In this document: piece after piece, positions 4,926-58,527 of the stretch
How the letters are laid out: every line of letters starts with the position of its first letter
Position numbering within the stretch: the stretch's first letter is position 1
Source: Escherichia coli
Lineage (GTDB): Bacteria > Pseudomonadota > Gammaproteobacteria > Enterobacterales > Enterobacteriaceae
Direction: 5' to 3' (one strand)
NCBI RefSeq assembly: GCF_001677475.2
Contig: NZ_CP015229.1
DNA length: 64,000 nt
Position numbers and translations under genes: made by a program
Notes under the pieces: model-generated
Seen by the model: the letters and a program-made list of their open reading frames with translations, nothing else
The model's database searches: none
Told to the model about the DNA's origin: nothing

Positions 4926-5013
<88 letters not shown>

Positions 5014-6135: not shown

Positions 6136-6477
6136 ATGAGCATTACTACAATCAACAGCACCATGCAGGCGCAAATCATGCAGGACGTGCAGCGGATGCA
6201 GGCCAACGCCCAGGCGCCGGTGCTTCCCGCCATGACCTTCAGTTCCACCGACCCGGACGTTTCGTTTAACCGCATTATGAGCGGCGCGTTCAGTCACGTT
6301 GACCAGTTCCAGCAGGTGGCGGAGCAGCAGCAAACGGCTATCGACACGGGCAAAAGTGATGACCTCGCCGGGGCGATGATCGCCAGCCAGCAGGCGTCGC
6401 TCTCGTTCTCCGCGCTGGTGCAGGTGCGCAACAAAATCGCCACCGGATTTAACGATCTGATGAGTATGTCGATCTAA
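6136..6477 (+). CDS. lfiE: Flagellar hook-basal body protein FliE homolog
   Basis: 113 aa, FliE-like C-terminus, precedes fliF homolog. Confidence 0.75.
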   Translation: MSITTINSTMQAQIMQDVQRMQANAQAPVLPAMTFSSTDPDVSFNRIMSGAFSHVDQFQQVAEQQQTAIDTGKSDDLAGAMIASQQASLSFSALVQVRNKIATGFNDLMSMSI

Positions 6478-6481
6478 CCCT

Positions 6482-8128
6482 ATGAATGCACAAATAAAGA
6501 AGTTAACCCAGGCGTTTCCGGCGTTTCGACTGCGTCTCGCAGATAACAAACGCTGGGCGCTGATGGCGGTAGTGGGGCTTGCCGTGGCGGCAACGGCGAT
6601 TATCGTCAGCGTGCTGTGGACCGGTAATCGCGGCTACGTCTCGCTCTACGGACGCCAGGAAAATCTGCCCGTGTCGCAGATTGTCACCGTGCTGGATGGC
6701 GAAAAGCTCAGCTACCGCATCGACCCGCAAAGCGGGCAGATTCTGGTGCCGGAAGATGAACTGTCGAAAACGCGCATGACCCTTGCTGCCAAAGGCGTGC
6801 AGGCGATATTGCCCAGCGGCTACGAGCTGATGGACAAAGACGAAGTGCTCGGCAGCAGCCAGTTCGTGCAGAACGTGCGCTACAAACGCAGCCTCGAAGG
6901 GGAGCTGGCGCAGAGCATCATGTCGCTGGACGCGGTGGAGAGCGCGCGGGTGCATCTGGCGCTCAACGAAGAAAGCTCGTTTGTGGTCAGCGATGAGCCG
7001 CAAAACAGTGCCTCGGTGGTGGTGCGTCTGCACTACGGCGCGAAGCTGAATATGGACCAGGTGAACGCCATTGTGCATCTGGTTTCCGGCAGCATTCCGG
7101 GGCTGCACGCCAGCAAAGTTAGCGTCGTCGATCAGGCGGGAAATCTGCTAACCGACGGCATTGGCGCGGGCGAGGCGGTTTCTGCCGCTACCCGTAAACG
7201 CGATCAGATTCTCAAAGACATCCAGGACAAAACCCGCGCCAGCGTGGCAAACGTGCTGGATTCGCTGGTCGGCAGCGGGAATTACCGCGTCAGCGTGATG
7301 CCGGATCTCGACCTCAGCACCATCGACGAAACCCAGGAACACTACGGCGACGCGCCGAAAATCAACCGCGAAGAGAGCGTGCTGGACAGCGACACTAACC
7401 AGGTGGCGATGGGCGTGCCCGGTTCGCTCAGTAACCGTCCGCCGGTTGCGGCGAATCAGATGACCAACGGTACGGAAGAAAACCGCTCGCCGGAAGCGTT
7501 ATCCAAACACAGCGAAAGCAAGCGCGATTACTCTTACGACCGCAGCGTCCAGCATATTCAGCATCCCGGGTTTGCGGTGAAACGCCTCAACGTGGCGGTG
7601 GTGCTCAATCAAAACGCCCCGGCGCTGAAAAACTGGAAGCCGGAGCAGACTGCGCAACTGACCGCGTTGCTGAACAATGCCGCCGGGATCGACGTCCAGC
7701 GCGGTGACAATCTCACCTTATCGCTGCTTAACTTTGTGCCGCAGGCGGTGCCGGTCGAACCAATTATTCCGCTGTGGAAAGACGACAGCGTGCTGGCCTG
7801 GGTGCGGCTGATTGGCTGCGGCCTGCTGGCGCTGTTGTTGCTGTTCTTTGTGGTGCGCCCGGTAATGAAACGCCTGACGGCGGTACGTGCGCCGGTTATC
7901 CCGCCAGAACCGGAAGCCGTCAGCGAACCGTGGATCGCCATGCCGGAAGAGGAGCGCAAAAACGTCGATCTGCCGTCGCTACCCGGCGATGACAGCCTGC
8001 CGTCCCAGAGTTCCGGCCTCGAAGTAAAACTCGAGTTCCTGCAAAAACTGGCCATGAGCGACACCGATCGCGTAGCCGAAGTTCTCAGACAATGGATCAC
8101 CAGCAATGAGCGAATTGACAACAAATAA
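6482..8128 (+). CDS. lfiF: Flagellar MS-ring protein FliF homolog
   Basis: 548 aa, N-terminal TM, large periplasmic domain, C-terminal TM. Confidence 0.85.
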   Translation: MNAQIKKLTQAFPAFRLRLADNKRWALMAVVGLAVAATAIIVSVLWTGNRGYVSLYGRQENLPVSQIVTVLDGEKLSYRIDPQSGQILVPEDELSKTRMTLAAKGVQAILPSGYELMDKDEVLGSSQFVQNVRYKRSLEGELAQSIMSLDAVESARVHLALNEESSFVVSDEPQNSASVVVRLHYGAKLNMDQVNAIVHLVSGSIPGLHASKVSVVDQAGNLLTDGIGAGEAVSAATRKRDQILKDIQDKTRASVANVLDSLVGSGNYRVSVMPDLDLSTIDETQEHYGDAPKINREESVLDSDTNQVAMGVPGSLSNRPPVAANQMTNGTEENRSPEALSKHSESKRDYSYDRSVQHIQHPGFAVKRLNVAVVLNQNAPALKNWKPEQTAQLTALLNNAAGIDVQRGDNLTLSLLNFVPQAVPVEPIIPLWKDDSVLAWVRLIGCGLLALLLLFFVVRPVMKRLTAVRAPVIPPEPEAVSEPWIAMPEEERKNVDLPSLPGDDSLPSQSSGLEVKLEFLQKLAMSDTDRVAEVLRQWITSNERIDNK

Positions 8129-20985: not shown

Positions 20986-21122
20986 TCGTAGGCCGGATAA
21001 GGCGTTCACGCCGCATCCGGCAGTTATGCGGTGGCGCCTGATGCGACGCTTTGCGTCTTATCAGGCCTACAAGCCTGTGCCCAAACCGTAGGCCGGATAA
21101 GGCGTTCACGCCGCATCCGGCA
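20986..21122. repeat. Cluster of REP/BIME palindromic units (at least three)
   Basis: Repeated ggccggataaggcgttcacgccgcatccggca and gcctgatgcgacgctttgcgtcttatcaggcctac. Confidence 0.85.
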
Positions 21123-43096: not shown

Positions 43097-44341
43097 ATGA
43101 CACAGGCAAACCTGAGCGAAACCCTGTTCAAACCCCGCTTTAAACATCCTGAAACCTCGACGCTAGTTCGCCGCTTTAATCACGGCGCACAACCGCCTGT
43201 GCAGTCGGCCCTTGATGGTAAAACCATCCCTCACTGGTATCGCATGATTAACCGTTTGATGTGGATCTGGCGCGGCATTGACCCACGTGAAATCCTCGAC
43301 GTCCAGGCGCGTATTGTGATGAGCGATGCCGAACGTACCGACGATGATTTATACGATACGGTGATTGGCTACCGCGGCGGCAACTGGATTTATGAGTGGG
43401 CTACCCAGGCGATGGTGTGGCAACAAAAAGCCTGTGCGGAAGAAGATCCGCAACTCAGTGGTCGACACTGGCTGCATGCGGCTACGTTGTACAACATTGC
43501 TGCCTATCCTCATCTAAAAGGAGATGACCTGGCCGAGCAAGCGCAGGCTTTGTCAAACCGCGCCTATGAAGAGGCCGCTCAGCGTCTGCCGGGCACGATG
43601 CGGCAGATGGAGTTTACCGTACCCGGCGGTGCGCCCATCACCGGCTTTTTGCATATGCCGAAAGGCGATGGCCCGTTCCCGACAGTATTAATGTGTGGTG
43701 GTCTGGATGCGATGCAGACGGACTATTACAGCCTGTATGAACGTTATTTTGCGCCGCGCGGCATTGCGATGCTGACTATTGATATGCCGTCGGTGGGCTT
43801 TTCTTCAAAATGGAAGCTCACCCAGGACTCCAGCCTGTTGCATCAGCACGTCTTAAAGGCGCTGCCTAACGTACCGTGGGTAGATCACACTCGCGTCGCG
43901 GCCTTTGGTTTCCGTTTCGGCGCTAACGTTGCCGTACGTCTGGCATACCTTGAATCGCCGCGTCTGAAAGCGGTTGCCTGTCTTGGTCCGGTAGTTCATA
44001 CCCTGTTGAGTGATTTTAAGTGCCAGCAACAGGTGCCGGAAATGTATCTTGACGTTCTGGCGAGTCGTTTGGGGATGCATGATGCTTCCGACGAAGCGTT
44101 ACGCGTGGAGCTGAATCGCTATTCATTAAAAGTGCAAGGATTGCTGGGACGTCGTTGCCCAACGCCAATGTTATCAGGCTACTGGAAGAACGATCCGTTC
44201 AGCCCGGAAGAGGACTCACGCTTAATCACCTCATCATCTGCTGACGGTAAATTATTAGAGATCCCATTTAACCCGGTGTATCGGAATTTTGACAAAGGCC
44301 TTCAGGAAATCACAGACTGGATCGAAAAACGATTGTGTTAA
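43097..44341 (+). CDS. frsA: Esterase FrsA (fermentation/respiration switch protein)
   Basis: 414 aa alpha/beta hydrolase. Confidence 0.9.
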
Positions 44342-44800
<459 letters not shown>

Positions 44801-44809
44801 GTGAAATGT

Positions 44810-44830
44810 GCCGGATGCATCACATCCGGC
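44810..44830. terminator. Bidirectional terminator hairpin between crl and phoE
   Basis: gccggatg-catcac-atccggc perfect stem. Confidence 0.6.
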
Positions 44831-44838
44831 AATAATCA

Positions 44839-45894
44839 TTAAAACTGATACGTCATCCCAACCGCGACAATATCATCATTATTAATATTCAATTTGTTAT
44901 CGCTATCCAGTTGGTTGATTTTATAATCAACAAACGCTGACATATTTTTGTTGAAATAATATGTAGCACCGACGTCGATATAATTGACCAGATCTTCATC
45001 ACCGATACCTTCAATATCTTTCCCTTTCGATAAGACATAACCCAGCGATGGACGCAGACCAAAGTCAAACTGATATTGAGCGACCGCTTCAAAGTTCTGT
45101 GTCTTATTGGCAAAGCCGCCAGTTATTGGCGTCATTTTGCGTGTTTCAGAATAGAAAGTTGCCAGATAAATATTATTGGCATCGTATTTCAGACCTGTTG
45201 CCCATGCTTCTGCACGCTTGCCTGTGCCACGGCTTTGCAGATTCTGCTCGTTGGTGCGATCTGAGTTGGTATAGGCCCCACTAATGGCGAAATCGCTGCC
45301 GCCAAAGTCATATGTCAATGACGTGCCGAAGCCATCGCCGTTTTGCTTTTTAACGTCGCGGTTTTCGTTTTTCCCTTGATATTGCAGGGTTAAGTTCAGG
45401 CCATCGATAACGCCGAAGAAGTCGGTGTTCCGATACGTCGCCAGACCGCTGGCGCGTTTGGTCATGAAGTTGTCGGTCTGCGCCGAGGAGTCGCCACCAA
45501 ATTCCGGGAACATATCGGTCCAGGCCTCAACGTCATACAACGCGCCCAGGTTACGACCATAATCGAAAGAACCCAAATCTTTATATTTCAACCCGGCAAA
45601 AGCGAGACGCGTTTTTTGCTGTGCAGTATCACTCTCCGCTTTATTACCGGCAAACTCCGCTTCCCACCGACCATAACCCGTCAGTTGATCGTTAATTTGT
45701 GTTTCGCCTTTAAAACCAAAACGGATATAACTCTGGTCGCCATCTTTACTGTCGTTATCACTCATATAATGCATGGCTTTAACTTTGCCATAGACATCCA
45801 GTTTATTACCGTCTTTGTTATATATTTCTGCGGCCTGTACGGATGCAGATGCCACAATGCCCATCACCACTAATGCCAGAGTGCTCTTTTTCAT
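44839..45894 (-). CDS. phoE: Outer membrane phosphoporin PhoE
   Basis: Signal peptide [21 protein letters not shown]; porin C-terminus ...GMTYQF. Confidence 0.95.
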
Positions 45895-45966
45895 TTTCAT
45901 TCCTGATTTTAATTAACGCGCGAATATTCAGCGGGAGAGTCCCGTTGAAAACAGGAAAGTTTTTAA

Positions 45967-45993
45967 CCTGAGATTGTTAAAGATATATTACAG
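45967..45993 (-). promoter_or_regulatory. Candidate Pho box (PhoB binding site) upstream of phoE
   Basis: Minus-strand ctgtaatatatctttaacaatctcagg resembles CTGTCAT-type Pho box repeats. Confidence 0.55.
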
Positions 45994-46181
45994 ATTAATA
46001 ATATTCTTAAAATGTGGTAATTTATTAAATCTGTAATAAAAGCGTAAACAACTGCCGCTAGGCTTGCTGATCCCGCGCAACAAAACGCCATGCTTTGCTC
46101 GCAGATGGTTGGCAACCGACGACAGTCCTGCTAAAACGTTCGTTTGATATCATTTTTCCTAAAATTGAATGGCAGAGAATC

Positions 46182-47285
46182 ATGAGTGACAGCCAGACGC
46201 TGGTGGTAAAACTCGGCACCAGTGTGCTAACAGGCGGATCGCGCCGCCTGAACCGTGCCCATATCGTTGAACTTGTTCGCCAGTGCGCGCAGTTACATGC
46301 CGCCGGGCATCGGATTGTTATTGTGACGTCGGGCGCGATCGCCGCCGGACGTGAGCACCTGGGTTACCCGGAACTGCCAGCGACTATCGCCTCGAAACAA
46401 CTGCTGGCGGCGGTAGGGCAGAGTCGACTGATTCAACTGTGGGAACAGCTGTTTTCGATTTATGGCATTCATGTCGGGCAAATGCTGCTGACCCGTGCTG
46501 ATATGGAAGACCGTGAACGCTTCCTGAACGCCCGCGACACCCTGCGTGCGTTGCTCGATAACAATATCGTTCCGGTAATCAATGAGAACGATGCTGTCGC
46601 TACTGCGGAGATTAAGGTCGGCGATAACGATAACCTTTCTGCGCTGGCGGCGATTCTGGCGGGTGCCGATAAACTGTTGCTGCTGACCGATCAAAAAGGT
46701 TTGTATACCGCTGACCCGCGCAGCAATCCGCAGGCAGAACTGATTAAAGATGTTTACGGCATTGATGACGCACTGCGCGCGATTGCCGGTGACAGCGTTT
46801 CAGGCCTCGGAACTGGCGGCATGAGTACCAAATTGCAGGCCGCAGACGTGGCTTGCCGTGCGGGTATCGACACCATTATTGCCGCGGGCAGCAAACCGGG
46901 CGTTATTGGTGATGTGATGGAAGGCATTTCCGTCGGTACGCTGTTCCATGCCCAGGCCACTCCGCTTGAAAACCGTAAACGCTGGATTTTCGGTGCGCCG
47001 CCTGCGGGTGAAATCACGGTAGATGAAGGGGCAACCGCCGCCATTCTTGAACGCGGCAGCTCCCTGTTGCCGAAAGGCATTAAAAGCGTGACTGGCAATT
47101 TCTCGCGTGGTGAAGTCATCCGCATTTGCAACCTCGAAGGCCGCGATATCGCCCACGGTGTCAGTCGTTACAACAGCGATGCATTACGCCGTATTGCCGG
47201 ACACCACTCGCAAGAAATTGATGCAATACTGGGATATGAATACGGCCCGGTTGCCGTTCACCGTGATGACATGATTACCCGTTAA
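46182..47285 (+). CDS. proB: Glutamate 5-kinase
   Basis: Start set to internal ATG ([19 protein letters not shown]...), 367 aa. Confidence 0.95.
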
Positions 47286-47296
47286 GGAGCAGGCCG

Positions 47297-48550
47297 ATGC
47301 TGGAACAAATGGGCATTGCCGCGAAGCAAGCCTCGTATAAATTAGCGCAACTCTCCAGCCGCGAAAAAAATCGCGTGCTGGAAAAAATCGCCGATGAACT
47401 GGAAGCACAAAGCGAAATCATCCTCAACGCTAACGCCCAGGATGTTGCAGACGCGCGTGCCAATGGCCTTAGCGAAGCGATGCTTGACCGTCTGGCACTG
47501 ACGCCCGCACGGTTGAAAGGCATTGCCGACGATGTGCGCCAGGTGTGCAACCTCGCCGATCCGGTGGGGCAGGTGATTGATGGTGGTGTGCTGGACAGCG
47601 GTCTGCGTCTGGAGCGTCGTCGCGTACCGCTGGGGGTGATTGGCGTGATTTATGAAGCTCGCCCGAACGTGACAGTTGATGTCGCTTCGCTGTGCCTGAA
47701 AACCGGTAACGCAGTGATCCTGCGCGGTGGCAAAGAAACCTGTCGCACTAACGCTGCAACGGTGGCGGTGATTCAGGACGCCCTGAAATCCTGCGATTTA
47801 CCGGCGGGTGCCGTGCAGGCGATTGATAATCCTGACCGTGCGCTGGTCAGTGAAATGCTGCGTATGGATAAATACATCGACATGTTGATCCCGCGCGGCG
47901 GGGCTGGTTTGCATAAACTGTGCCGCGAACAGTCGACGATCCCGGTGATCACTGGTGGTATAGGCGTATGCCATATTTACGTTGATGAAAGTGCAGAGAT
48001 CGCTGAAGCCCTGAAAGTCATCGTCAACGCGAAAACCCAGCGTCCGAGCACATGTAATACGGTTGAAACGTTGCTGGTAAATAAAAACATAGCAGATAGC
48101 TTCCTGCCCGCATTAAGCAAACAAATGGCGGAAAGCGGCGTGACATTACACGCAGATGCAGCTGCGCTGGCGCAGTTGCAGACAGGCCCCGCGAAGGTGG
48201 TGGCGGTTAAAGCCGAAGAGTATGACGATGAGTTTCTGTCATTAGATTTGAACGTCAAAATCGTCAGCGATCTTGACGATGCCATCGCCCATATTCGTGA
48301 ACACGGCACGCAACACTCCGATGCGATCCTGACCCGCGATATGCGCAACGCCCAGCGTTTTGTTAACGAAGTGGATTCGTCCGCTGTTTACGTTAACGCC
48401 TCTACGCGTTTTACCGACGGCGGCCAGTTTGGACTGGGTGCGGAAGTGGCGGTAAGCACACAAAAACTCCACGCGCGTGGCCCAATGGGGCTGGAAGCGC
48501 TGACCACTTACAAGTGGATCGGCATTGGTGATTACACCATTCGTGCGTAA
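47297..48550 (+). CDS. proA: Gamma-glutamyl phosphate reductase
   Basis: 417 aa aldehyde dehydrogenase-type. Confidence 0.95.
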
Positions 48551-48664
48551 ATAAAACCGGGTGATGCAAAACTAGCCATTTGATTCACAAGGCCATTGAC
48601 GCATCGCCCGGTTAGTTTTAACCTTGTCCACCGTGATTCACGTTCGTGAACATGTCCTTTCAGG

Positions 48665-48740
48665 GCCGATATAGCTCAGTTGGTAGAGCAGCGCATTCGT
48701 AATGCGAAGGTCGTAGGTTCGACTCCTATTATCGGCACCA
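48665..48740 (+). tRNA. thrW: tRNA-Thr (anticodon CGU)
   Basis: gccgatatagctcagttggtagagcagcgcattcgtaatgcgaaggtcgtaggttcgactcctattatcggcacca; cloverleaf with CGT anticodon and CCA end. Confidence 0.95.
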
Positions 48741-48754
48741 TTTAAATCAATAAG

Positions 48755-48960
48755 TTACACATCATTAGTACCTTCCTTATTTCTTGACTGGGACAAATTT
48801 GGGACCGATGGGTTCAGAATCGAGTCTATTTGCCGTGCGTGTTCGGTAAGGTGATTAGGTGCGAGGTGAGCATATCGACGAACCATTTCAAGAGTTTCCC
48901 ATCCTCCCATTTCTGTAAGTGCAAGAAGAGAAACACTGGACTGAACCAGCCTGCTTGCCT
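48755..48960 (-). pseudogene. Tyrosine recombinase/integrase remnant (C-terminal fragment only)
   Basis: ORF encodes ...[36 protein letters not shown] (integrase C-terminus with catalytic Tyr) but lacks upstream catalytic domain; abuts thrW 3' end. Confidence 0.7.
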
Positions 48961-49103
48961 TTGCTATCAAAGTACCTTGAGGACCAGATGATTTCTGGCG
49001 ATATTTACAGCGCGTCCGCAATGAGTTTTTCTCCGTGCCGCCAGTGACGTTCCCCGCTTTTTCAGTGCGGCGATAATATCAGCGGGATGCCAGTCCTGTT
49101 GTG

Positions 49104-49574
49104 TCATACAACCACCTCGCTGATAAATTTTACGCCGTCGGCGGTGCGCAGCCAGCGCGGGGCTTTGAGTCCTTCCATGAAATACCAGACCAGTTCACAC
49201 AACAGCCCGGTCAGGGTTTGTTCCGTTTTTGGTTCCGCCGGGCGTTCCAGCAGAAGCTGGAGTAGTGCGAGGCAGTATTCGCACAAGGAATCTGGTTCGG
49301 AAATAAAGTGCTCTGGTGTGGCGGGAAGGGTATCAACGGTCAGGCTTTCAATCAGATGCGGCGGGATGGGGTCGTGCAGCGTGGGGTGCAATAGCGCAAG
49401 AGCCGCGTGAAGCCGTCCGCAGAGCGCTAGCCGTAGCGCGGGATCGTCGGTTTCGATCAGGGTTTCGGCGAAGCGGGCGCAGTAATCGGCAAGGACAGTA
49501 AAATCCGTGGTGGCATTGAAGGGGGCGGACAGCAGATCGAGTAAATCGCAGTCAGGGGTGAGGGTTGTAGCCAT
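49104..49574 (-). CDS. Hypothetical protein (island-encoded, unknown function)
   Basis: 156 aa from ATG 49572-49574 with upstream aggag RBS; no recognisable motif. Confidence 0.5.
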   Translation of the reverse strand: MATTLTPDCDLLDLLSAPFNATTDFTVLADYCARFAETLIETDDPALRLALCGRLHAALALLHPTLHDPIPPHLIESLTVDTLPATPEHFISEPDSLCEYCLALLQLLLERPAEPKTEQTLTGLLCELVWYFMEGLKAPRWLRTADGVKFISEVVV

Positions 49575-49917
49575 AGGGCGTCTCCTGTAACGGTTTATTA
49601 TGTCCGCCACTAGAGAGGCTAATCTCATGGGGGGCGGAACCGGACGGGGTTAGCCTTACCGGCGTTACAGGAAACCGGCGCGTCTTGCGACGCCCCCGCC
49701 CGGCCCGCCATTGAGGTGTAGCCGAACGCACGACACAAAAAAGACGCTGGTGCGTCAAGTGTCGCCTGTAACGGTTTTCAGGAGGCTAATCCCGACGCCT
49801 GATTTTGCAGGCGCGGGAGAAAGATACTGCGATTGGTCATGAGTGGCAAGGGCTACATCCTGTTTACCGACATCTCACGCAAAAATACCCTGATTATTAA
49901 TAGCGAAAATCAGTTTC

Positions 49918-52900
49918 TTATTTTGGCGGTAGCTTTTTGCGGTTCTTTGCCAATTGGAATCCTTCAGGTAACGGTTTGAATTTATCGCCGCCTTTAGGCC
50001 AGCGTTTTGCCCTGCTCTGAAATGCCCTTAACGAGTCGATATCCAGTGTTGCAGCGATCACAAAGTCATTATCGCCGCCCTTCACACGAGCAATATCACG
50101 CATAAAGGGTTCTTTTGCCGGGGAACGTACGCGACTATCGCCGTATTTTCGGTTATTCACTAAAATGGTATAGGCATGAATATCCAGCGCTGCTGATTCA
50201 ATCAACGATGCAAACGTATCCAGATCTTTATTCCAGCTCAATACCATTAATGCATCGAGCGCGCCCTGAAAACGGATCCTCGCTTTACTATTCTGGAGTT
50301 CAGAGCAAATCATAACGCCAAAATTGACGCCGTGATGAATATATACCGGCTTACGTTGTTTAACATTAAGTGTCGAGTCCCAAGACTTACCATAAGTTGA
50401 AAATAATGCCTCATCTTCACCTACGGCGGGTTCCAGCTTGGGTTGCCATATTTTGACACTCGCTGGATAGCCGAGTCTGTTATCTGAAAGGACAAGTACG
50501 GCCTCACTCTTCAGTTGATTATCGCCTAAGTGGCGGTATTCTGTTCCCGCAATTAGACTGATACCCGCCGAACTCAAACGATCAGCAATACTGTTAACCC
50601 AGCGTAACGGGATTGAAAGCTCGGGGAATAAAACATAATCAGGTTTAGGAGATAGTTTCAATGTTGCATTAACCAGTTCAGAAATCCGCTGGTACCTTGA
50701 ACGGGACAAGTTAGATTTATTGCAGGCCATTTTAGCCCAGTCGTCTTCCTCTGTTTTAATGCTGGTTAGCGCAACGACAATTTTATGTTTCCTGTCAGTG
50801 CCAATATGAATGAATTTCTTAGGCCGAGCTTTTTTTGTCGCTTCATCTGAGTCCTGCTCCGATGCTAGTAACGTCGGTTTGATCCATACACCGCGTAATG
50901 CTTGAGTATATTTTGCCCAAACGGTGGACGGTCTCTCATCTGGTTTTTTGTCGGATGTAGAGGGTAATCCAACACATTCGGGGGCCAGTTCTGATATTTC
51001 AGCGGGAGTTAAAGGACGTGTAGGGAAAATGTAAGGTAGGTAACTTTCGTTCTTACGATTTCCTTTAGCCACTTTTTCCAGTCGGGTATTCTTGGTTGAT
51101 TTCAAAAATAGCTTAATAACGTCAATATCAATAAGCGATGAGTCCCTCATTAATTTCAGTATTTTAACTTCTTTTTTACGATCACGCTGATTAACAAGTT
51201 TTTCTGCCGACTGACTCTTTACGATCTGTTTATAAGGTTCCTTTGCTAAATCAGCTCGAGCTACCAATGGCGCTTTTAAATAAAAATCTGCTGAATCAAA
51301 GCGAAGATCCAGTAAATCCTTTAGATTTGTCAGACTTTGTGAAATATGATTAAAAAATGTATCCGCAAGGCACTCTTCTTTCTTTGAACGTTTATCAAGA
51401 AATAATCTGTCAGGACTGTAATATCGTGTCGCTGCATCAACAAATAGCCAGCTTAATGTGCCTTTTATACAGCGCCAAAGATCATTTACTGCTCGAGTTT
51501 TGCAACCATTTATAGTCACTTCCTTACCTGAAGTAATCACCGATGCCAACAGGTTGATGGACTCGTAAGCTTTAAGTACAATTTTTTCCGCGTGCTGCCA
51601 TTCATTCATACTGATAGCAAAGCCAAGCAGCCTTGGCAGATAACTAAAATGTGCAAATAGATTATCAGCCCTAAGAATATGGTTGTAGGCAAACTGATAA
51701 AACTCTTCCCGCTGTTCTTTCCATTCACTTGGAGACAGATCTCGTGCCAGTGTTTCAACGTAGCGTAATTGCAGTGACCAGCCCAAACGACGAATGGTTA
51801 ATCCATCCGCACGGCGCAGAGTATCGGCATTTTCACCTACACTACCGGCAGCGGAAAGGACTTTAGCTGCGGTGGAGTGTTCCAGTTGATCCGGTGAAGG
51901 CATCAAGCGGTGTTCACTAGAAAGCTCGTAGATCTCCTTTTCGATACTGTCGAGCAGATCTATTCCTGCCCTCCCTTGAAGCACGAAAAGTTTTTGCTTA
52001 TCGGATTGTAACTGGATGGTGGTCTTACCCTGGAAATGCTCGCCCTGCTGTATTTGCCATATTTGTTTTTTCTCGTTTTTCAGATAAACGCAATCATTGC
52101 CAAGCCTATCTTGCAGCAATAACATAAATTCGTGATTATTAGTAATTTTACCTGTATCGCGTATTACAAGGAACATATCATCGACATAACGACCGTAGTG
52201 AATTGGCGACAGTTTTTCAATGACTAATTTATCCCAATGGTGTAGCAATATATTGGAAATGATCCGACTGGCTGTTAATCCAATGACCAGACCACCATTA
52301 ATAACAGGTGTTTTGTACGCTATTTTTTTTCCAAATGCCGCTGCGCCGTCAGACCAGTGCTTTAAGAATACAGCTAACTGTGCAGTAAACGCTTTTTCAT
52401 GCTCAGTCAGTTTTATGTTTAGTGTGTTATAGAGATCATCAGAGGTTATAGCCAGTGGATCAATAAAATGATAGTAACTTTTTAAATCCAGTGAGGCGGC
52501 GATAATGTCACGATCTTTTTCCAACTCGTCACGTATAGCTTTTAAGCCATCACCACGCCATTTTTGGTAGGGCTGGAAATAGGGGCTAAAAGAACCCACG
52601 GCACTGATATGGAATGGATTATCCTGCTCATTGCTAAATAATTCATCATTACGAATACGTTTTAGCCGCGCGCCATAACAACAGTTGTCTAAGCTGGCAT
52701 CAAATTTATGCCCGACCATATTAATCCATAGTGCAGAGATAATGTGACTATCAACCGGGAAGTCACCAATAATACGAAACTCTGGTATCAGATCAAAATT
52801 ATTAAATAAATGGTCGGCTGCTCGTTTAGGATTAGAAAAGTGGACGTGTCCATTTTGGAATTCATGTTTTTTCTTTGTGGTTAATTTTTTCGGTAACAAA

Positions 52901-53127
52901 CGAAATTTGCCAATCAACTTCTTATTGCTACTGAATCCATCTTCGCTCTGCAAAATATCTAAGAGTTCTTGCAGGTTTTCAATTAATTCCTGCTCATACT
53001 CGGCAAATTTGATAGCAACAGGAAATGTATTCTCAAAGAAGCTATCGGCTTTGGCTTTCCGGTAAGCGACCAGAAGGTCTTCAATCGTCAGATCATCCCA
53101 GCCAGTGAAAGTTGCCTGATATGTCAT
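49918..53127 (-). CDS. Reverse transcriptase-nitrilase fusion protein (UG/Abi-type defence-associated RT architecture)
   Basis: 1069 aa; RT motifs LDLKSYYHFIDP, GGLVIGLTASRIISNILL, YGRYVDDMF; C-terminal CN-hydrolase signatures FPELSIP and GVMICSELQN; low-GC gene. Confidence 0.75.
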   Translation of the reverse strand: MTYQATFTGWDDLTIEDLLVAYRKAKADSFFENTFPVAIKFAEYEQELIENLQELLDILQSEDGFSSNKKLIGKFRLLPKKLTTKKKHEFQNGHVHFSNPKRAADHLFNNFDLIPEFRIIGDFPVDSHIISALWINMVGHKFDASLDNCCYGARLKRIRNDELFSNEQDNPFHISAVGSFSPYFQPYQKWRGDGLKAIRDELEKDRDIIAASLDLKSYYHFIDPLAITSDDLYNTLNIKLTEHEKAFTAQLAVFLKHWSDGAAAFGKKIAYKTPVINGGLVIGLTASRIISNILLHHWDKLVIEKLSPIHYGRYVDDMFLVIRDTGKITNNHEFMLLLQDRLGNDCVYLKNEKKQIWQIQQGEHFQGKTTIQLQSDKQKLFVLQGRAGIDLLDSIEKEIYELSSEHRLMPSPDQLEHSTAAKVLSAAGSVGENADTLRRADGLTIRRLGWSLQLRYVETLARDLSPSEWKEQREEFYQFAYNHILRADNLFAHFSYLPRLLGFAISMNEWQHAEKIVLKAYESINLLASVITSGKEVTINGCKTRAVNDLWRCIKGTLSWLFVDAATRYYSPDRLFLDKRSKKEECLADTFFNHISQSLTNLKDLLDLRFDSADFYLKAPLVARADLAKEPYKQIVKSQSAEKLVNQRDRKKEVKILKLMRDSSLIDIDVIKLFLKSTKNTRLEKVAKGNRKNESYLPYIFPTRPLTPAEISELAPECVGLPSTSDKKPDERPSTVWAKYTQALRGVWIKPTLLASEQDSDEATKKARPKKFIHIGTDRKHKIVVALTSIKTEEDDWAKMACNKSNLSRSRYQRISELVNATLKLSPKPDYVLFPELSIPLRWVNSIADRLSSAGISLIAGTEYRHLGDNQLKSEAVLVLSDNRLGYPASVKIWQPKLEPAVGEDEALFSTYGKSWDSTLNVKQRKPVYIHHGVNFGVMICSELQNSKARIRFQGALDALMVLSWNKDLDTFASLIESAALDIHAYTILVNNRKYGDSRVRSPAKEPFMRDIARVKGGDNDFVIAATLDIDSLRAFQSRAKRWPKGGDKFKPLPEGFQLAKNRKKLPPK

Positions 53128-53330
53128 GCGTTATCGTCCTTAGATTAAAGTCTGTACAGAATTAGCCAGCCGTTTCATGCCCGAAGGAGGTGCTCTTGAC
53201 ACCAGTAATCCATCAGTGAGGCTGGCAATAATTTTGATTTGTATCCATGTTACACGCTCCCCGCAACCAGTCCGAGCATATATTTGTCACATTTTTCCCG
53301 AAAGTGATTAAGTTTGAATTTTTTGTTTAA

Positions 53331-53349
53331 TGTCGATTTTTAGTCGACA
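53331..53349. promoter_or_regulatory. Inverted repeat tgtcga-N7-tcgaca in divergent promoter region (candidate operator)
   Basis: Palindrome ~75 bp upstream of AbiEi-like gene; AbiEi antitoxins autoregulate via promoter inverted repeats. Confidence 0.35.
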
Positions 53350-53422
53350 AAATGAGGAATAAGTAAATTATTTCTTGCTGTGGCGTATCCCTGAACCTAC
53401 ACTGGTTTAAATATTTGTACTA

Positions 53423-54226
53423 ATGTCTATTCAGGGGCGACATTTGCCAAATTATCTAAACTGGCTGATGCAGAATACGCTACCCGGTCAGGTGCTGCTC
53501 CAGTCATGGCTTACCCGCAACGGCGTAGATCGTAAGCTCTCTTACCTCTATGTCCAGAATGGCTGGCTCAGGCGGATCGCTCACGGCGTATACTGCCGGA
53601 CGGGTCGTGAACCGGACTGGGTGGACGCGGTTTACTGCCTGCAAACACAGTGGGAAAAGCCAGTACGGGTGGCGGGGCTAACCAGCCTTGCGCTTCAGGG
53701 CCATGCGCACTATACCGAACCGGGTAAGCCGCAAATCTGGCTCGCGCTTCCGGCTTACGTCAAACTGCCGGGATGGTTTGCTGCCTTCGAACAATCTGCA
53801 ACATTTATCACGCTGTATACATCGGGCCTTACCGTTGATGTCACGTCATTTACTACGGAACTGAAAATTGGCGACCGGCAGTTAGCAGGCAGTGCCCCGG
53901 AACTGGCCGCGTATGAGATCGCCTGCGGCGTTCCTTCGTTGATATCGTTCGAACATGCCGATGCTCTGTTTCAGGGGATGAATCTTCTCAGCCCGCGTAA
54001 ATTGCAGGCGTTACTCTGCGCCAGTCATTCGGTTAAAACCAACCGGGTGATGCTTTACCTTGCCCGGCGTAATGGACACCCTTATTTTCAGTATATTGAT
54101 CAAAGCGGTATAGAAACAGGTACGGGAAAGCGGCAAATCATACCCGGCGGCTGGCTGGAGCCGGATTATCAAATTACTGTTCCACGCGAATTTAAACCGG
54201 AAGGAGTCGAAGATGGATCTGCGTGA
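53423..54226 (+). CDS. AbiEi-like antitoxin / transcriptional regulator (type IV TA)
   Basis: 267 aa; N-terminal AbiEi-type wHTH-like region (LTRNGVDRKLSYLYVQNGWLRRIAHGVYCRTG); overlaps downstream NTase gene by 14 bp. Confidence 0.6.
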   Translation: MSIQGRHLPNYLNWLMQNTLPGQVLLQSWLTRNGVDRKLSYLYVQNGWLRRIAHGVYCRTGREPDWVDAVYCLQTQWEKPVRVAGLTSLALQGHAHYTEPGKPQIWLALPAYVKLPGWFAAFEQSATFITLYTSGLTVDVTSFTTELKIGDRQLAGSAPELAAYEIACGVPSLISFEHADALFQGMNLLSPRKLQALLCASHSVKTNRVMLYLARRNGHPYFQYIDQSGIETGTGKRQIIPGGWLEPDYQITVPREFKPEGVEDGSA

Positions 54227-55133
54227 TAGCTATACCCGGCAGGTCAAACTGTTGATGGCCGCTCTGCCGCATGTGGCGAAGGAGTCCTGTTTCGCGTTGA
54301 AAGGCGGCACGGCAATCAATTTGTTTGTGCAGGATTTTCCCCGTCTGTCGGTGGATATCGATCTGGCGTATAAGACTTTTGCGGATCGCGATACCGATTT
54401 GACGGCGATCAACGACGCTTTGAAGAGAATTACTGCATCGCTGAACAGTAAACCGGGGATTACCGCGATTCGGCAGGAAAATAAAACGGATGAAAAGCGC
54501 ATCATTGTGAATACGGCTGATGCCCAGATTAAGATCGAGGTTAGTCCGGTCTGGCGTGGGCTGTTGTTGCCTCCGGCAGAAATGTCGGTGTGCGAACGTG
54601 TGGAAATGGAGTATGGCTTCACCACTATGAGTGTCGTTTCGCTGGCGGATCTTTATGGCGGTAAAATCTGCGCAGCGCTTGATCGTCAGCACCCGCGCGA
54701 TCTGTTTGATGTGCTGAATATGCTGGAGAAACCGGGACTGATGCGGGAGATCTTTGACGGTTTTCTTTGTTATCTGGCAGGCCATCCCCGCCCCATTGCC
54801 GAGTTGCTGGCCCCAAACTGGGATACAGAGCGGATCACGACGCTGTATGCCCAGGAATTTTCGGGGATGACTCAGCAGGAAACGTCGCTGGAATCGCTGC
54901 TGTCAGTAACGACTTTGCTGCCGCAGGCGTTGAAGTCACATCTTACGGATCTGGATCGCGAGTTCTTGCTCAGTTTTAAGCAAAACAGCCCTGACTGGTC
55001 GCGGTATCGCTATCCTGAAATTCAGCATCTTCCGGCTATTCGCTGGAAGCAACGCAATCTGGCGGTGCTTAAAGATAAAAATCCGGCGAAGTATGTGGCG
55101 GCGGTGAATAAGCTAGAGAGGGTGCTGGAGTAA
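54213..55133 (+). CDS. AbiEii-like nucleotidyltransferase toxin (DUF1814-type)
   Basis: 306 aa; NTase motif LKGGTAINLF ... RLSVDIDLAY (hGG...DhD). Confidence 0.65.
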   Translation: MDLRDSYTRQVKLLMAALPHVAKESCFALKGGTAINLFVQDFPRLSVDIDLAYKTFADRDTDLTAINDALKRITASLNSKPGITAIRQENKTDEKRIIVNTADAQIKIEVSPVWRGLLLPPAEMSVCERVEMEYGFTTMSVVSLADLYGGKICAALDRQHPRDLFDVLNMLEKPGLMREIFDGFLCYLAGHPRPIAELLAPNWDTERITTLYAQEFSGMTQQETSLESLLSVTTLLPQALKSHLTDLDREFLLSFKQNSPDWSRYRYPEIQHLPAIRWKQRNLAVLKDKNPAKYVAAVNKLERVLE

Positions 55134-55538
55134 TATTCTTAGCGCTGTTCAGGGACTCTGAATTGGGCCATGATGCTTTGGTTATATGAATAACTTCGTG
55201 GCCATAACTCAAACATATTCATTTAATTCAATACATAGCACCATCGAGTAAGAGATCGCTGAGTCATTAGACGATCTCTGCTCGTGGAAATACGAAACTA
55301 TCTCTTTCCAAAGCTGATCTGAATAACATTATCTGGAGCATCATTATTAGACCTGATGATCTCATGCTCAATAAAATCCCCCCATTTCAAAAAAAGATCC
55401 CGTAATTTTTCCGCCTGCTGCCCGACCTGATAAGTTCTGATTAATCTGTCTTTCGGAACATGATTCAACAGAAGTTCTATAAGCCGTTCTGGCGCATCCA
55501 GATACTCAGCACAGCCTGTAGAGTGCAGGTGCAGACAT

Positions 55539-56438
55539 TTAAGCCAATTGCTGCCGCCATTCCTTGACGTGGTCAATCAGGGCGCGGAGCTTTGGTGCAA
55601 TATTGCGACGCTGTGGGAAATACAGATAGAAGCCCGGAAATTGTGGAAGAAAGTCATCAAGCAGCGATACAAGCTTACCGCTTTCAATATATGGCCTGAA
55701 CGTTTCCTGAGTGGCAATTGTTATTCCTCCGCCGGCAAGAGCCAGCCTCAACATCAGACGCAGATCATTCGTCGTAATCTGCGGTTCAATCGCAAGGTCG
55801 AAAGCTCTACCGTTTTCTTCAAATGGCCAGCGATAAGGAGCAACCTCCGGGGACTGACGCCAGCCGATACACTTATGATTCACAAGTTCACGCGGGTGAA
55901 CAGGTGTGCTGTTGGCTGCGAGATAGGAGGGAGAGGCAACGACCATTTCACGCTGCCTGGCGGTAAGGGGAACAGCAATCATGTCTTTTTCAATGACCTC
56001 TCCGAGCCTTACGCCAGCATCGTAACCTGCGGCAACGATATCGAATTCCTCATCCGTGACAACAATATCAAGCGTAACGGCTGGATTGGCAGCTGCAAAC
56101 GAAGCGATTAGCGGACCTGAAAGAAATTCTTCTGCTATCGACGTCACCGCGATTCTGAGATGTCCACGTGGTACATGGTCAGAAACCATCTCTTCGAACG
56201 CTGCCTCAATACCGGATAAAGGTAATGACAACGATTTATGCAGCCGTTCTCCCGCTTCCGTCAAATTAACTGAGCGCGTGGTCCGCATTACAAGCATTGT
56301 CCCGAATGCATCTTCAAGGCGTCTTATTCCCTGACTGACCGCTGAACGGGTAACGCCCAGTCGTGCGGCGGCTTTACTGAAATTACTCTCTTCTGCTACC
56401 GCGATAAAAATGGGTAAAAGATTAAGATCGATTTTCAT
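55539..56438 (-). CDS. LysR-family transcriptional regulator
   Basis: 299 aa; N-terminal HTH (FSKAAARLGVTRSAVSQGIRRLE) and LysR substrate-binding domain. Confidence 0.9.
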   Translation of the reverse strand: MKIDLNLLPIFIAVAEESNFSKAAARLGVTRSAVSQGIRRLEDAFGTMLVMRTTRSVNLTEAGERLHKSLSLPLSGIEAAFEEMVSDHVPRGHLRIAVTSIAEEFLSGPLIASFAAANPAVTLDIVVTDEEFDIVAAGYDAGVRLGEVIEKDMIAVPLTARQREMVVASPSYLAANSTPVHPRELVNHKCIGWRQSPEVAPYRWPFEENGRAFDLAIEPQITTNDLRLMLRLALAGGGITIATQETFRPYIESGKLVSLLDDFLPQFPGFYLYFPQRRNIAPKLRALIDHVKEWRQQLA

Positions 56439-57259: not shown

Positions 57260-57470
57260 AGAATAACTTTTACATTCACGTTTTATTAAATATGTCAGAA
57301 GGAAAATTTATATCCACCTGTTTTGCATAGCAAGATGCATTATGTATTGCTCACCCCGAAGGAGATGAAGTTTTAATTACAGAAGGAGTATTTTCTCTTG
57401 GAGTAAATATGGCTCATGTTTAATGCCTATGTATATAAAACTCATCCTCTCAATTGTCAGGAGAATTAAC

Positions 57471-57701
57471 ATGAATACTATCTGTTCTTTAATTGTTGTG
57501 GTTACACTGTCTTTATTATCATTCAGTAGCGTCGCCAAAACGATTACTGCCGTCGGTTCAACCATCGACAGCACTGAAAAAGAAATTTCTTTACAGGCAG
57601 AAAAACAAGGAAAATCATATAAAATTCTGGGCGCATTTTTCAAGAACAGAGTTTATATTATAGCAAAGTTAACACCAGTCAGTAAAAATGATGCTTCATA
57701 A
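57471..57701 (+). CDS. Small secreted protein, DUF1471 (YdgH/BhsA)-like
   Basis: 76 aa with signal peptide; RBS caggag before ATG 57471. Confidence 0.55.
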   Translation: MNTICSLIVVVTLSLLSFSSVAKTITAVGSTIDSTEKEISLQAEKQGKSYKILGAFFKNRVYIIAKLTPVSKNDAS

Positions 57702-57752
57702 GGCTCATGATATAATTTTTAAGACATGATCAAGAAGCACGTTTATTTATTC

Positions 57753-57880
57753 ATATACTCTAAATAATTCAAGTTGCAGGAAGGCGACAAGTGAGTGAAT
57801 CCCCAGGAGCTTACAAAAGTAAGTGACTGGGGTGAATGAACGCAGTCGCAGCACATGCAACTTGAAGTATGACGAGTATA
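57753..57880. repeat. ERIC (IRU) element, second copy
   Basis: gtgaatccccaggagcttac and aagtaagtgactggggtgaatg; ~90% identical to copy at 38882. Confidence 0.85.
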
Positions 57881-58527
57881 ATTATCATTATTATGGCCAT
57901 GGAATACCTGACAAATGACGCTACCCCAACCTTCTGTACCAGTCGTTCTGCTAATTCTACCGATGCTTCGGTCTGGAGTGGTAGAGTAATATTAGACACA
58001 GTTTTATTTTCTCTCTTTTTCGAGGGCTGTATATGAACAGGAAGAATACATCCCTAAGCGGTTAATGCTGGCGTAATCAATAGACCAGCATTAATCACAG
58101 ATGATTATCAATCAGACAGAAATGGTTAAATCGTCGAATTCATAATTAATACTTTTTGTAACGCCGCTGAATAGCTTGAAAAGGATGTATATTTTAAATA
58201 TCAGTGAAGTGAACAGTTTATTGCCGTTATTAATAGAAATGGAGGAATAAATACGCGTATTCTACTATTGCAACAAAAACAACGATATTGATCATTTTTC
58301 ATAATGAAGTAACCTGACAGATATAAAAATGTTGATTGAGGCTAAATGCCCGGATGAAGGTTGTCGAGGGAGCCAGGTTGTTTTTTCTTTTGGATGATCT
58401 CCATTGCTGGATAGTCCCCTTGTACAGATAAGTCTGCTCTTTCTCGCTCAAAGCAGACCCTGGAATTGAACGCAGAGTGACTACCTGACACAATATTGCA
58501 CCGTGAAGAGTCGGTCGTTGTTAACGT

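Follow-up and report, generated by a model that had tools for sequence, protein, structure and literature searches.

What is the block of DNA that follows the tRNA-Thr gene thrW in Escherichia coli contig NZ_CP015229.1 (assembly GCF_001677475.2), which integrase does it own, and what has it kept? The stretch analysed here, referred to below as the window, is 64,000 nucleotides (nt) long. An original prediction, made from the letters alone, described positions 48741–55200 as an island of low guanine-plus-cytosine (GC) content at thrW that carries its decayed integrase beside the tRNA gene and has retained only defence cargo. We consider it probable that the block, which spans positions 48741–55521, was left at the thrW hotspot by a small tRNA-integrating element of the "integrase-only" defence-island type and is now an immobilised remnant of it. 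The core of the prediction, an immobilised integrative-element remnant with defence genes, agrees with an empty site in another strain, with the loss of most of an integrase and of the right attachment site (attR) and with ratios of nonsynonymous to synonymous substitution rates (dN/dS) of 0.05–0.15. The identity of the integrase, the uniformly low GC content and the purely defensive cargo have to be revised.

Limits of the thrW island and its two integrase stubs

The block is a true insertion that is variable among E. coli. In strain A30 the site is empty, with proA and thrW followed by 105 nt and then by the LysR gene found at window positions 55539–56438. Of 5,426 complete E. coli genomes, only 258 contain 80% or more of the block. 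Comparison with K-12 and A30 showed that host flank resumes at 55522, and among the matches listed, of 3,303 genomes with any match, the alignment to host flank begins at 55522–55524. Since the A30 site is empty and the flank matches begin at these positions, the island occupies 48741–55521 (6.78 kb) and its right limit lies beyond the 55200 proposed before. The opposite picture, the same gene content at thrW in all relatives together with host-like composition, is contradicted by A30, by the count above and by the GC values given below.

The view of thrW as a known integration hotspot is supported by the literature. The site is hotspot #33 (yagP–proA, tRNA_Thr_CGT) of Hochhauser et al. 2023 (PMC10121019), who use it to illustrate "integrase-only mobile elements", report AbiEii there and list it among the sites of P4-like satellites. 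In the literature on E. coli sequence type 131 (ST131), the locus is called GI-thrW and bears the type I restriction-modification (R-M) methyltransferase M.EcoMIII (PMC4659465). At the same thrW/LysR site, O157:H7 (locus record L024, 549–5340) has a P4-like satellite remnant with an Icd-like protein and a primase-helicase; differing element types therefore compete for the hotspot.

The last 45 nt of thrW form the core of the left attachment site (attL) and are repeated as attR in complete relatives. In strain AR_0104 a nearly full-length integrase of the P4 type (440 codons, one internal stop) lies 170 nt from a 45-nt partial thrW copy (locus record L003, 22645–22689). K-12 CP4-6 follows the same logic, with intF beside a thrW' copy at 297206–297264. 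The window is collinear with AR_0104 at the DNA level up to 55521, and its right end retains a stub of the AR_0104-type integrase (Table 1). The window deletion comprises the N-terminal ~365 integrase codons, attR and the 105 nt of host flank. The search for a direct repeat of the thrW 3' end, suggested with the original prediction, retrieved no second copy in the window with up to 3 mismatches allowed. The loss of ~365 integrase codons, attR and host flank means that the island is immobilised. With no repeat and 75 integrase codons left in the window, and both features present in AR_0104, it follows that the window copy is a remnant and not a mobile member. A blastp comparison of the stub with K-12 IntF gave nothing significant; IntF itself shares just 22% identity with the AR_0104 thrW-island integrase.

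Table 1. Features of the thrW island in window coordinates; assignments rest on the matches in the last column.
Feature	Position	Strand	Basis
thrW, tRNA-Thr(CGT), attL side	48665–48740	+	ARAGORN; Rfam tRNA, 71.8 bits
Lambdoid-phage integrase relic (stub 1), last ~68 codons, catalytic-Tyr motif RRYAHL	48755–48958	-	protein comparison, PHROG integrase matches
Ner/Nlp-like helix-turn-helix (HTH_35) pseudogene	~48959–49107	-	three minus-strand frames versus intact 72–85-aa homologues (pheV, asn islands)
ORF156, intact conserved 156-aa protein, predicted to be under C4 control	49104–49574	-	helical bundle plus beta-hairpin (model)
Putative downstream C4 targets: b2 (GUUACAGG) 49584–49591, a2 (UUAGCC) 49617–49622	49582–49622	-	direct repeat D5, loop pairing
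C4-type antisense RNA (P1 c4/P4 CI family)	49627–49715	-	Rfam RF01695, 73.7 bits, gathering 45, full model
IsrK-like leader RNA	49737–49827	-	Rfam isrK, 68 bits (49737–49814), gathering 50
Candidate intrinsic terminator of IsrK	49743–49756 + T-run	-	terminator-like site in scan
Putative upstream targets inside IsrK	a1 49784–49789, b1 49765–49772	-	
Promoter-like site (TTGCCA, 17 nt, TATCTT) for the predicted IsrK–C4–ORF156 transcript	49821–49849	-	consensus scan
Swappable AT-rich cassette	49851–53219		blastn collinearity breaks at 49850 and 53220
UG5-large RT–nitrilase (class 3 UG/Abi defence reverse transcriptase), 1069 aa	49918–53127	-	PADLOC RT_UG5-nitrilase
Putative AbiEi antitoxin/regulator (type IV toxin–antitoxin, winged helix-turn-helix)	53423–54226	+	PADLOC AbiEi, 262.5 bits, near full length
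Putative AbiEii nucleotidyltransferase toxin	54213–55133	+	PADLOC AbiEii, 387.9 bits, full length
P4-type tyrosine integrase stub of the island (stub 2), last 75 codons	55298–55521	-	92% protein identity to AR_0104 integrase residues 366–440

The integrase C-terminal fragment reported directly after thrW is present, with its RRYAHL region kept. It can be read as an open reading frame (ORF) at 48755–49021 on the minus strand, of which the relic portion ends at ~48958. This portion is 85% identical at the protein level to residues 306–373 of the integrase of a lambdoid prophage in E. coli B1S11. That prophage is intact and sits at the same thrW place, and window positions 48600–48913 share 97.8% DNA identity with B1S11. 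Furthermore, thrW in the empty site of A30 is followed by ~66 nt alignable to the TUM13936/AR_0104 allele of stub 1, and such a stretch of ~66 nt is also found after the thrW' repeat (attR flank) in K-12. This sequence therefore predates the island and belongs to lambdoid phage traffic at the site. The first ~170 nt of the stub occur as two alleles, one in the window, 042 and B1S11 and the other in TUM13936, AR_0104 and K-12, and the junction at ~48959 is common to all four island-bearing strains. On these comparisons, stub 1 is a relic of lambdoid prophage traffic and not the island's own integrase.

The history proposed originally, a single element at thrW whose own integrase is the stub next to the tRNA gene, would fit the position of the stub directly against thrW, oriented as one would expect at a lambda/P22-type attL, as well as the lack of attR in the window. 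We regard it as very unlikely, since the stub is lambdoid and nothing else in the island is, since its sequence is older than the island, since the P4-type stub at the other end corresponds to the integrase that stands beside attR in AR_0104, and since the stub and the rest of the island are found apart (A30, K-12, B1S11). What stands of the decayed integrase is the immobilisation itself; the relevant enzyme is the P4-type stub at 55298–55521, which had been overlooked, as had the Ner-like pseudogene and the IsrK and C4 RNAs at 49627–49827.

The Ner-like pseudogene is disrupted by a deletion within the gene, a frameshift and a stop. The ATG at which it starts overlaps the stop codon of ORF156 (ATGA), and its 3' end is fused to the integrase relic at ~48959. 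RefSeq annotates a frameshifted HTH pseudogene in TUM13936 and 042, and neighbours at the Ner position in related loci match PF13693. Judged from these alignments, the stub-to-Ner junction is a deletion scar and not native phage gene order.

A mosaic scaffold with a swappable cassette

Markedly higher AT content had been ascribed to the whole block. When GC content was calculated per feature, only the RT (reverse transcriptase) cassette (41.9%, with 38% at third codon positions) and the two integrase stubs (46% for stub 1 and 41.5% for stub 2) proved AT-rich. The values are 57.7% for ORF156, 58.7% for the C4/IsrK region upstream of it, 53.6% for AbiEi and 52.2% for AbiEii; for reference, proBA has 55%, the window mean is 52.8% and 1-kb windows outside the island have 53.6 ± 5.0%. 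The island is thus a mosaic of a GC-rich regulatory head, an AT-rich swappable cassette and a host-like AbiE pair.

The window is collinear with AR_0104 over 44000–49850 and 53220–55521. Between these segments AR_0104 carries a 6.1-kb hsdS-hsdM-hsdR type I R-M system, versus the 3.4-kb RT cassette in the window. In the complete E. coli genomes the left module was found in 801, the AR_0104-type integrase with attR in 553 and the RT gene in ~258–260. The RT gene occupies one place per genome and is 98.3–98.6% identical to the window in all carriers. Synonymous divergence (dS) from E. coli counterparts is 0.046–0.049 for the RT cassette, 0.23–0.24 for ORF156, 0.18–0.26 for AbiEi, 0.11–0.19 for AbiEii and 0.14 for the core gene proA, i.e., 3–5 times lower in the cassette than in the adjoining island genes (0.11–0.26) or proA. 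A cassette dS of ~0.05 against 0.11–0.26 in the flanks suggests that the cassette is younger than the scaffold and moved into it recently. In addition, the window matches AR_0104 in C4 specificity but TUM13936 and 042 in cargo. No short direct or inverted repeats were found at the cassette edges. These patterns are consistent with cassettes and modules having been exchanged by homologous recombination in conserved flanks.

Assuming that the AR_0104-type island is the GI-thrW of ST131 (EC958; PMC4659465), both having type I R-M at thrW, the window and GI-thrW share one scaffold: lambdoid stub, Ner remnant, ORF156, C4/IsrK, AbiEi/AbiEii and the same P4-type integrase, with 92–93% DNA identity in the flanks and identical C4 specificity. 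GI-thrW differs in having hsdRMS (6.1 kb) in the slot and in keeping a near-full integrase (one internal stop) and attR. On that assumption, the island is a sister haplotype of ST131 GI-thrW.

The RT–nitrilase gene recognised before was retrieved as a full-length match to PADLOC profile PDLC03780 (RT_UG5-nitrilase; 1031.7 bits, residues 1–1068 against profile positions 9–901 of 907). UG5-large proteins belong to the class 3 UG/Abi RTs (PMC9226505). The RT motif YVDD at residues 314–317 aligns with D324/D325 of DRT1 (structure 9yfd) and the nitrilase Cys941 with C1116 of the same structure; Glu836 was read from sequence. The gene has a dN/dS of 0.14. A Pfam-A search retrieved no RVT or CN_hydrolase domain in the 1069-aa protein even at E ≤ 10, and 0 of 120 listed homologues carry a precomputed Pfam domain, which is a gap in Pfam sensitivity and not evidence against the assignment. 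Full-length homologues with ~70–76% identity are found in Salmonella, Yersinia, Citrobacter, Vibrio and many marine Gammaproteobacteria. The nearest ones (Salmonella, Yersinia) are stand-alone genes located beside Kiwa and type I R-M (hsdRMS) systems, near an EFASI/Integrase_1 head of the kind described below.

UG5-large of E. coli E101, encoded in a P4-like hotspot together with a one-helix membrane partner, is anti-phage (Rousset 2022, PMC9122126). Between the RT stop and the IsrK promoter, the window has no ORF on the RT strand that encodes a hydrophobic segment, and no such ORF was found upstream of the gene either. Two candidates for a transmembrane partner were rejected. A 48-aa ORF with a hydrophobic tail at the RT 3' end is antisense, starts with TTG and overlaps the IsrK promoter, and stops were found at the same nominal offset in TUM13936 and 042 (offset indels unaccounted for). 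A KwaA-like membrane protein encoded upstream of the Salmonella and Yersinia homologues is part of the Kiwa system. In the UG5-large family a transmembrane partner is frequent but not universal (31/299 members), and the S. meliloti UG5-large system DRT11 is anti-phage without one (bioRxiv 10.64898/2025.12.16.694600). The window RT is like DRT11 and DRT1 in being a single gene with YVDD and the catalytic Cys conserved, and unlike the E101 system, which has the partner; its similarity to DRT1 is distant (30 bits) and confined to the motif regions.

From these features, the RT–nitrilase is probably a stand-alone abortive-infection system. Class 3 defence-associated RTs (DRTs), including the UG5-type DRT5S and DRT5L, make protein-primed, template-free DNA, and in DRT1 the DNA adducts keep nitrilase-bearing filaments dormant (PMC13275509). 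By analogy, the window RT would make such adducts and thereby keep its nitrilase effector dormant until phage infection.

The AbiE-like pair described earlier is confirmed by PADLOC. The two genes are adjacent with a 14-nt overlap, and both have near-complete profile coverage; RefSeq relatives of AbiEi begin at the equivalent of 53444. With dN/dS of 0.05–0.08 for AbiEi and 0.10–0.12 for AbiEii, they appear to form a type IV toxin–antitoxin abortive-infection pair under purifying selection. Compared with known systems there is nothing notable about the pair, except that here it is the constant right-hand flank of a variable slot; the same AbiE arrangement is present in a Klebsiella pheV island.

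An IsrK–C4 antisense RNA module in front of ORF156

The claim that only defence cargo was kept does not hold, for the block also retains a fully complementary phage-type antisense RNA switch and the conserved ORF156. Within the IsrK-like leader, the c4-a1b1 target motif of Rfam was found at 49775–49827 on the minus strand with 43.8 bits, just under the gathering score of 46.7. The CTTGCC and GTATCTT parts of the promoter-like site are conserved in island alignments, and its -35 hexamer abuts the left edge of the cassette (49850/49851). The C4 RNA has a b' loop (CCUGUAAC, 49664–49671) and an a' loop (GGCUAA, 49650–49655), and b2 overlaps the GGAG Shine–Dalgarno sequence of ORF156. In the window the loops have perfect 8-nt and 6-nt complementarity to both target sets (a1/b1 and a2/b2).

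Covariation was counted on nine distinct modules from E. coli (thrW, pheV and asn islands), Klebsiella and Dickeya. For a2/b2 with the C4 loops, 99.2% of cells are paired and compensatory changes are present in 8 of 14 pairs. For a1/b1 with a'/b', pairing reaches 100% of cells, with compensatory changes in 9 of 14 pairs. None of 500 column shuffles gave pairing as high, and sliding the partners by 1–3 columns reduced it to 21–45%. At least six b' specificities occur among the modules compared. This loop–target covariation is strong comparative evidence that the switch has been maintained by selection, in the remnant included.

The module is predicted to control ORF156. As in P1, P7 and P4, a single transcript would contain both target sets, a1/b1 and a2/b2, with the C4 antisense RNA between them; processed C4 would then pair with a2/b2 over the ribosome-binding site and hold ORF156 off. 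A layout of leader, C4 and target is the architecture of P1/P7 c4 and P4 CI immunity, and the distinct loop–target specificities are comparable to P1 versus P7. The order leader a1/b1, C4 and a2/b2 over the next ribosome-binding site is the same in P1/P7 (c4, icd, ant), in P4 (CI RNA, seqA/seqC) and in Gifsy-1 IsrK. The island module differs in residing in a non-phage island and in the genes it would control, which are ORF156 and the Ner-like HTH gene (with Integrase_1 further on in intact islands) and not icd/ant or a replication operon. IsrK itself is known from Salmonella Gifsy-1 (PMC4825925). In the two phages checked for C4 cross-talk (PA28 and 2H10; not an exhaustive set), the a'/b' loops differ from those of the islands, and no paper linking C4/IsrK or EFASI to these islands was found in the literature searched.

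ORF156, noted before as an unknown 156-aa ORF, is present and intact. Searches against Pfam, PHROG, NCBIfam and PADLOC gave no match for it. Its homologues form 616 clusters, and among the best 120 listed, Enterobacterales are the only named sources; a search of 50,697 phage records gave a single match, an unannotated 1.5-kb fragment. The gene has a dN/dS of 0.12–0.22. A moderately confident AlphaFold2 model (mean pLDDT, the per-residue confidence score, 77.5) consists of a helical bundle plus a hairpin and matches only generic four-helix bundles. ORF156 occupies the position that icd/ant have in P1 or antirepressor genes in lambdoid phages. Within the cargo of asnT/mtfA islands (locus records L008–L013, ~6406–6486), the part of ORF156 that encodes the C-terminus recurs as a second, partial copy, which suggests a scar of tandem accretion of two head modules.

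RefSeq coding sequences for an "ash family protein" (Pfam PF10554), annotated in locus records L001, L002, L003 and L007, overlie the C4 RNA (window 49619–49783, minus strand). In the window this frame has two stops, whereas the RNA is fully intact, as are its targets; the protein family may represent an RNA gene read as protein.

Related islands and the origin of the element

Islands with the same head are found elsewhere in Enterobacterales. The shared order is P4-type integrase, a 294-aa Integrase_1, EFASI RNA, the HTH_35 Ner-like gene, ORF153–156 and C4 with IsrK. The head occupies tRNA-Phe and tRNA-Asn sites in E. coli, the corresponding yqgA/speC site in Klebsiella and an island in Dickeya; the Dickeya island has the P4-type integrase and lacks the Integrase_1 gene. 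EFASI (RF02957, 96–112 bits) was located just upstream of the 294-aa Integrase_1 in locus records L006 (10280–10406), L007 (9271–9399) and L025 (10836–10966); in L006 and L007 the Ner-like HTH gene flanks it on the opposite side. The pheV and asn islands and a Salmonella RT–nitrilase island all have this motif, a second conserved RNA of the head, which the window lost with the deletion of that part. In each island variable cargo directly follows the head module: an AAA ATPase with an AbiE-like pair; DUF4747 and a 185-aa gene with AbiEi_3/AbiEii and TacAT; HsdMSR with embedded DarTG; AAA_23/MComp1/Trypsin-CTD4; or DUF2169/PAAR/RHS type VI secretion effectors. The annotated loci of these related islands contain no P4 satellite core genes and no phage structural genes.

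The islands described at hotspot #33 by Hochhauser et al. (PMC10121019) share the site and the flanking genes and consist of an integrase and defence genes without other recognised mobility genes; the window copy differs from them by the loss of integrase and attR. The passages searched in that paper make no mention of an IsrK/C4–ORF156–Ner head module and leave mobilisation unexplained.

A degraded P4-like phage satellite, of which only the psu–int defence hotspot survives, would also have left a P4-type integrase and an RNA of the C4 family, to which the CI immunity factor of P4 belongs. The UG5-large RT–nitrilase was, moreover, first validated from a P4-like hotspot (PMC9122126), and P4-like satellites do use the thrW site, as seen in O157:H7 and in the hotspot list of Hochhauser et al. 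Such an origin nevertheless seems very improbable. The core set of P4-like satellites (psu, delta, sid, alpA, epsilon and alpha; SatelliteFinder set) and cos gave no match among the island ORFs searched or the annotated relatives, and psu, delta, sid, alpha primase and epsilon were found neither in the window nor in the fuller thrW, pheV and asn relatives. The head genes (ORF156, the Ner-like HTH, the 294-aa Integrase_1 and EFASI RNA) are not P4 genes, and the cassette lies between the C4 promoter and AbiE and not between psu and int.

Least credible of all is a lambdoid prophage remnant consisting of an integrase stub and an antirepressor-control region with defence genes as moron cargo: stub 1 is indeed lambdoid, and Stx and other lambdoid phages have IsrK and C4 modules of ~72% similarity ahead of antirepressor genes, but ORF156 is essentially without phage homologue, the module always stands beside P4-type integrases at tRNA genes in islands without phage structural or replication genes, and the stub-to-Ner junction is a scar.

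For the integrase-only element that we prefer, a complete copy, as in AR_0104 and ST131 GI-thrW, would run from thrW (attL) through a head module and one variable defence cassette to AbiEi/AbiEii, a P4-type integrase and the 45-nt thrW copy (attR), with a head made up of the Ner-like HTH gene, ORF156, C4 RNA, IsrK leader and promoter. The window could be derived from it by three events. A deletion common to all thrW versions would have fused the lambdoid integrase relic to the 3' end of the Ner-like gene and removed the original left end. The variable slot would then have gained the AT-rich RT–nitrilase cassette, likeliest by homologous recombination in the conserved flanks. Finally, a deletion would have reduced the integrase to its stub and taken attR and 105 nt of host flank, after which the island could spread solely by descent or by recombination of its flanks.

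Several points weigh against this interpretation. The three events were put in order by parsimony, and the roles in defence, RNA processing and repression are all deduced from sequence. The lambdoid stub may belong to the attP arm of the element, as both thrW copies of AR_0104 are followed by such a stub. The AR_0104 integrase has an internal stop, and no demonstrably mobile copy of the thrW element was seen. The integrase is located at the attR end and faces away from the core on the tRNA 5' side, which is unusual for P4-type integrases. Finally, E101 UG5-large required its transmembrane partner, according to Mestre 2022 (PMC9226505); with no such partner in the window, the RT gene could be inactive alone.

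Some further observations concern the surroundings of the island. A deletion has removed the entire segment 55135–58065 from E. coli 042 and from most of the other RT-type strains. Beyond an SDR gene, positions 57260–58065 have 36% GC and contain a small hypothetical ORF, with a ykgR remnant just past it. A 126-bp imperfect palindrome with an ERIC/IRU core (GTGAATCCCCAGGAGCTTACA...AAGTAAGTGACTGGGGTGA) lies at 57754–57879; it is inserted in the window and missing from the same spot of TUM13936, is present in ~5 copies per E. coli genome by megablast, and in Rfam matches only V_AS5 at a sub-threshold score. The phoE-proB-proA segment (44839–48550) is at most 98.3% identical to any of the 5,426 complete E. 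coli genomes, and the window therefore comes from an Escherichia lineage without a close complete-genome relative in that set. Rfam matches to naRNA4 (derived from REP elements) above the gathering score at 4931–5007 and 20991–21067 are ordinary repetitive extragenic elements.

Earlier work has already described the site, the kind of island, the AbiE pair and the RT family; the covarying C4/IsrK head module may be the only new element. It is possible, though on balance doubtful, that the integrase-only islands of Enterobacterales form one family with a phage-like head, marked by P4-type integrase, Integrase_1, EFASI, Ner-like HTH, ORF153–156 and C4 with IsrK in at least six heteroimmune specificities, in which the switch serves as an immunity/induction circuit and the slot beside the C4 promoter as a dedicated exchange point for defence cassettes. 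Such a satellite-style circuit may link either the excision of the island or the expression of the neighbouring defence slot to infection by phage.

A stand-alone UG5-large gene that is ~70% identical across distant Gammaproteobacteria offers a convenient natural test of the need for a membrane partner, and the island as a whole is a textbook case of defence genes persisting after decay of their vehicle. If the head module is functional, it would provide the first concrete handle on the regulation or mobilisation of the abundant "integrase-only" defence islands, as well as a predictable slot in which to seek new defence systems.

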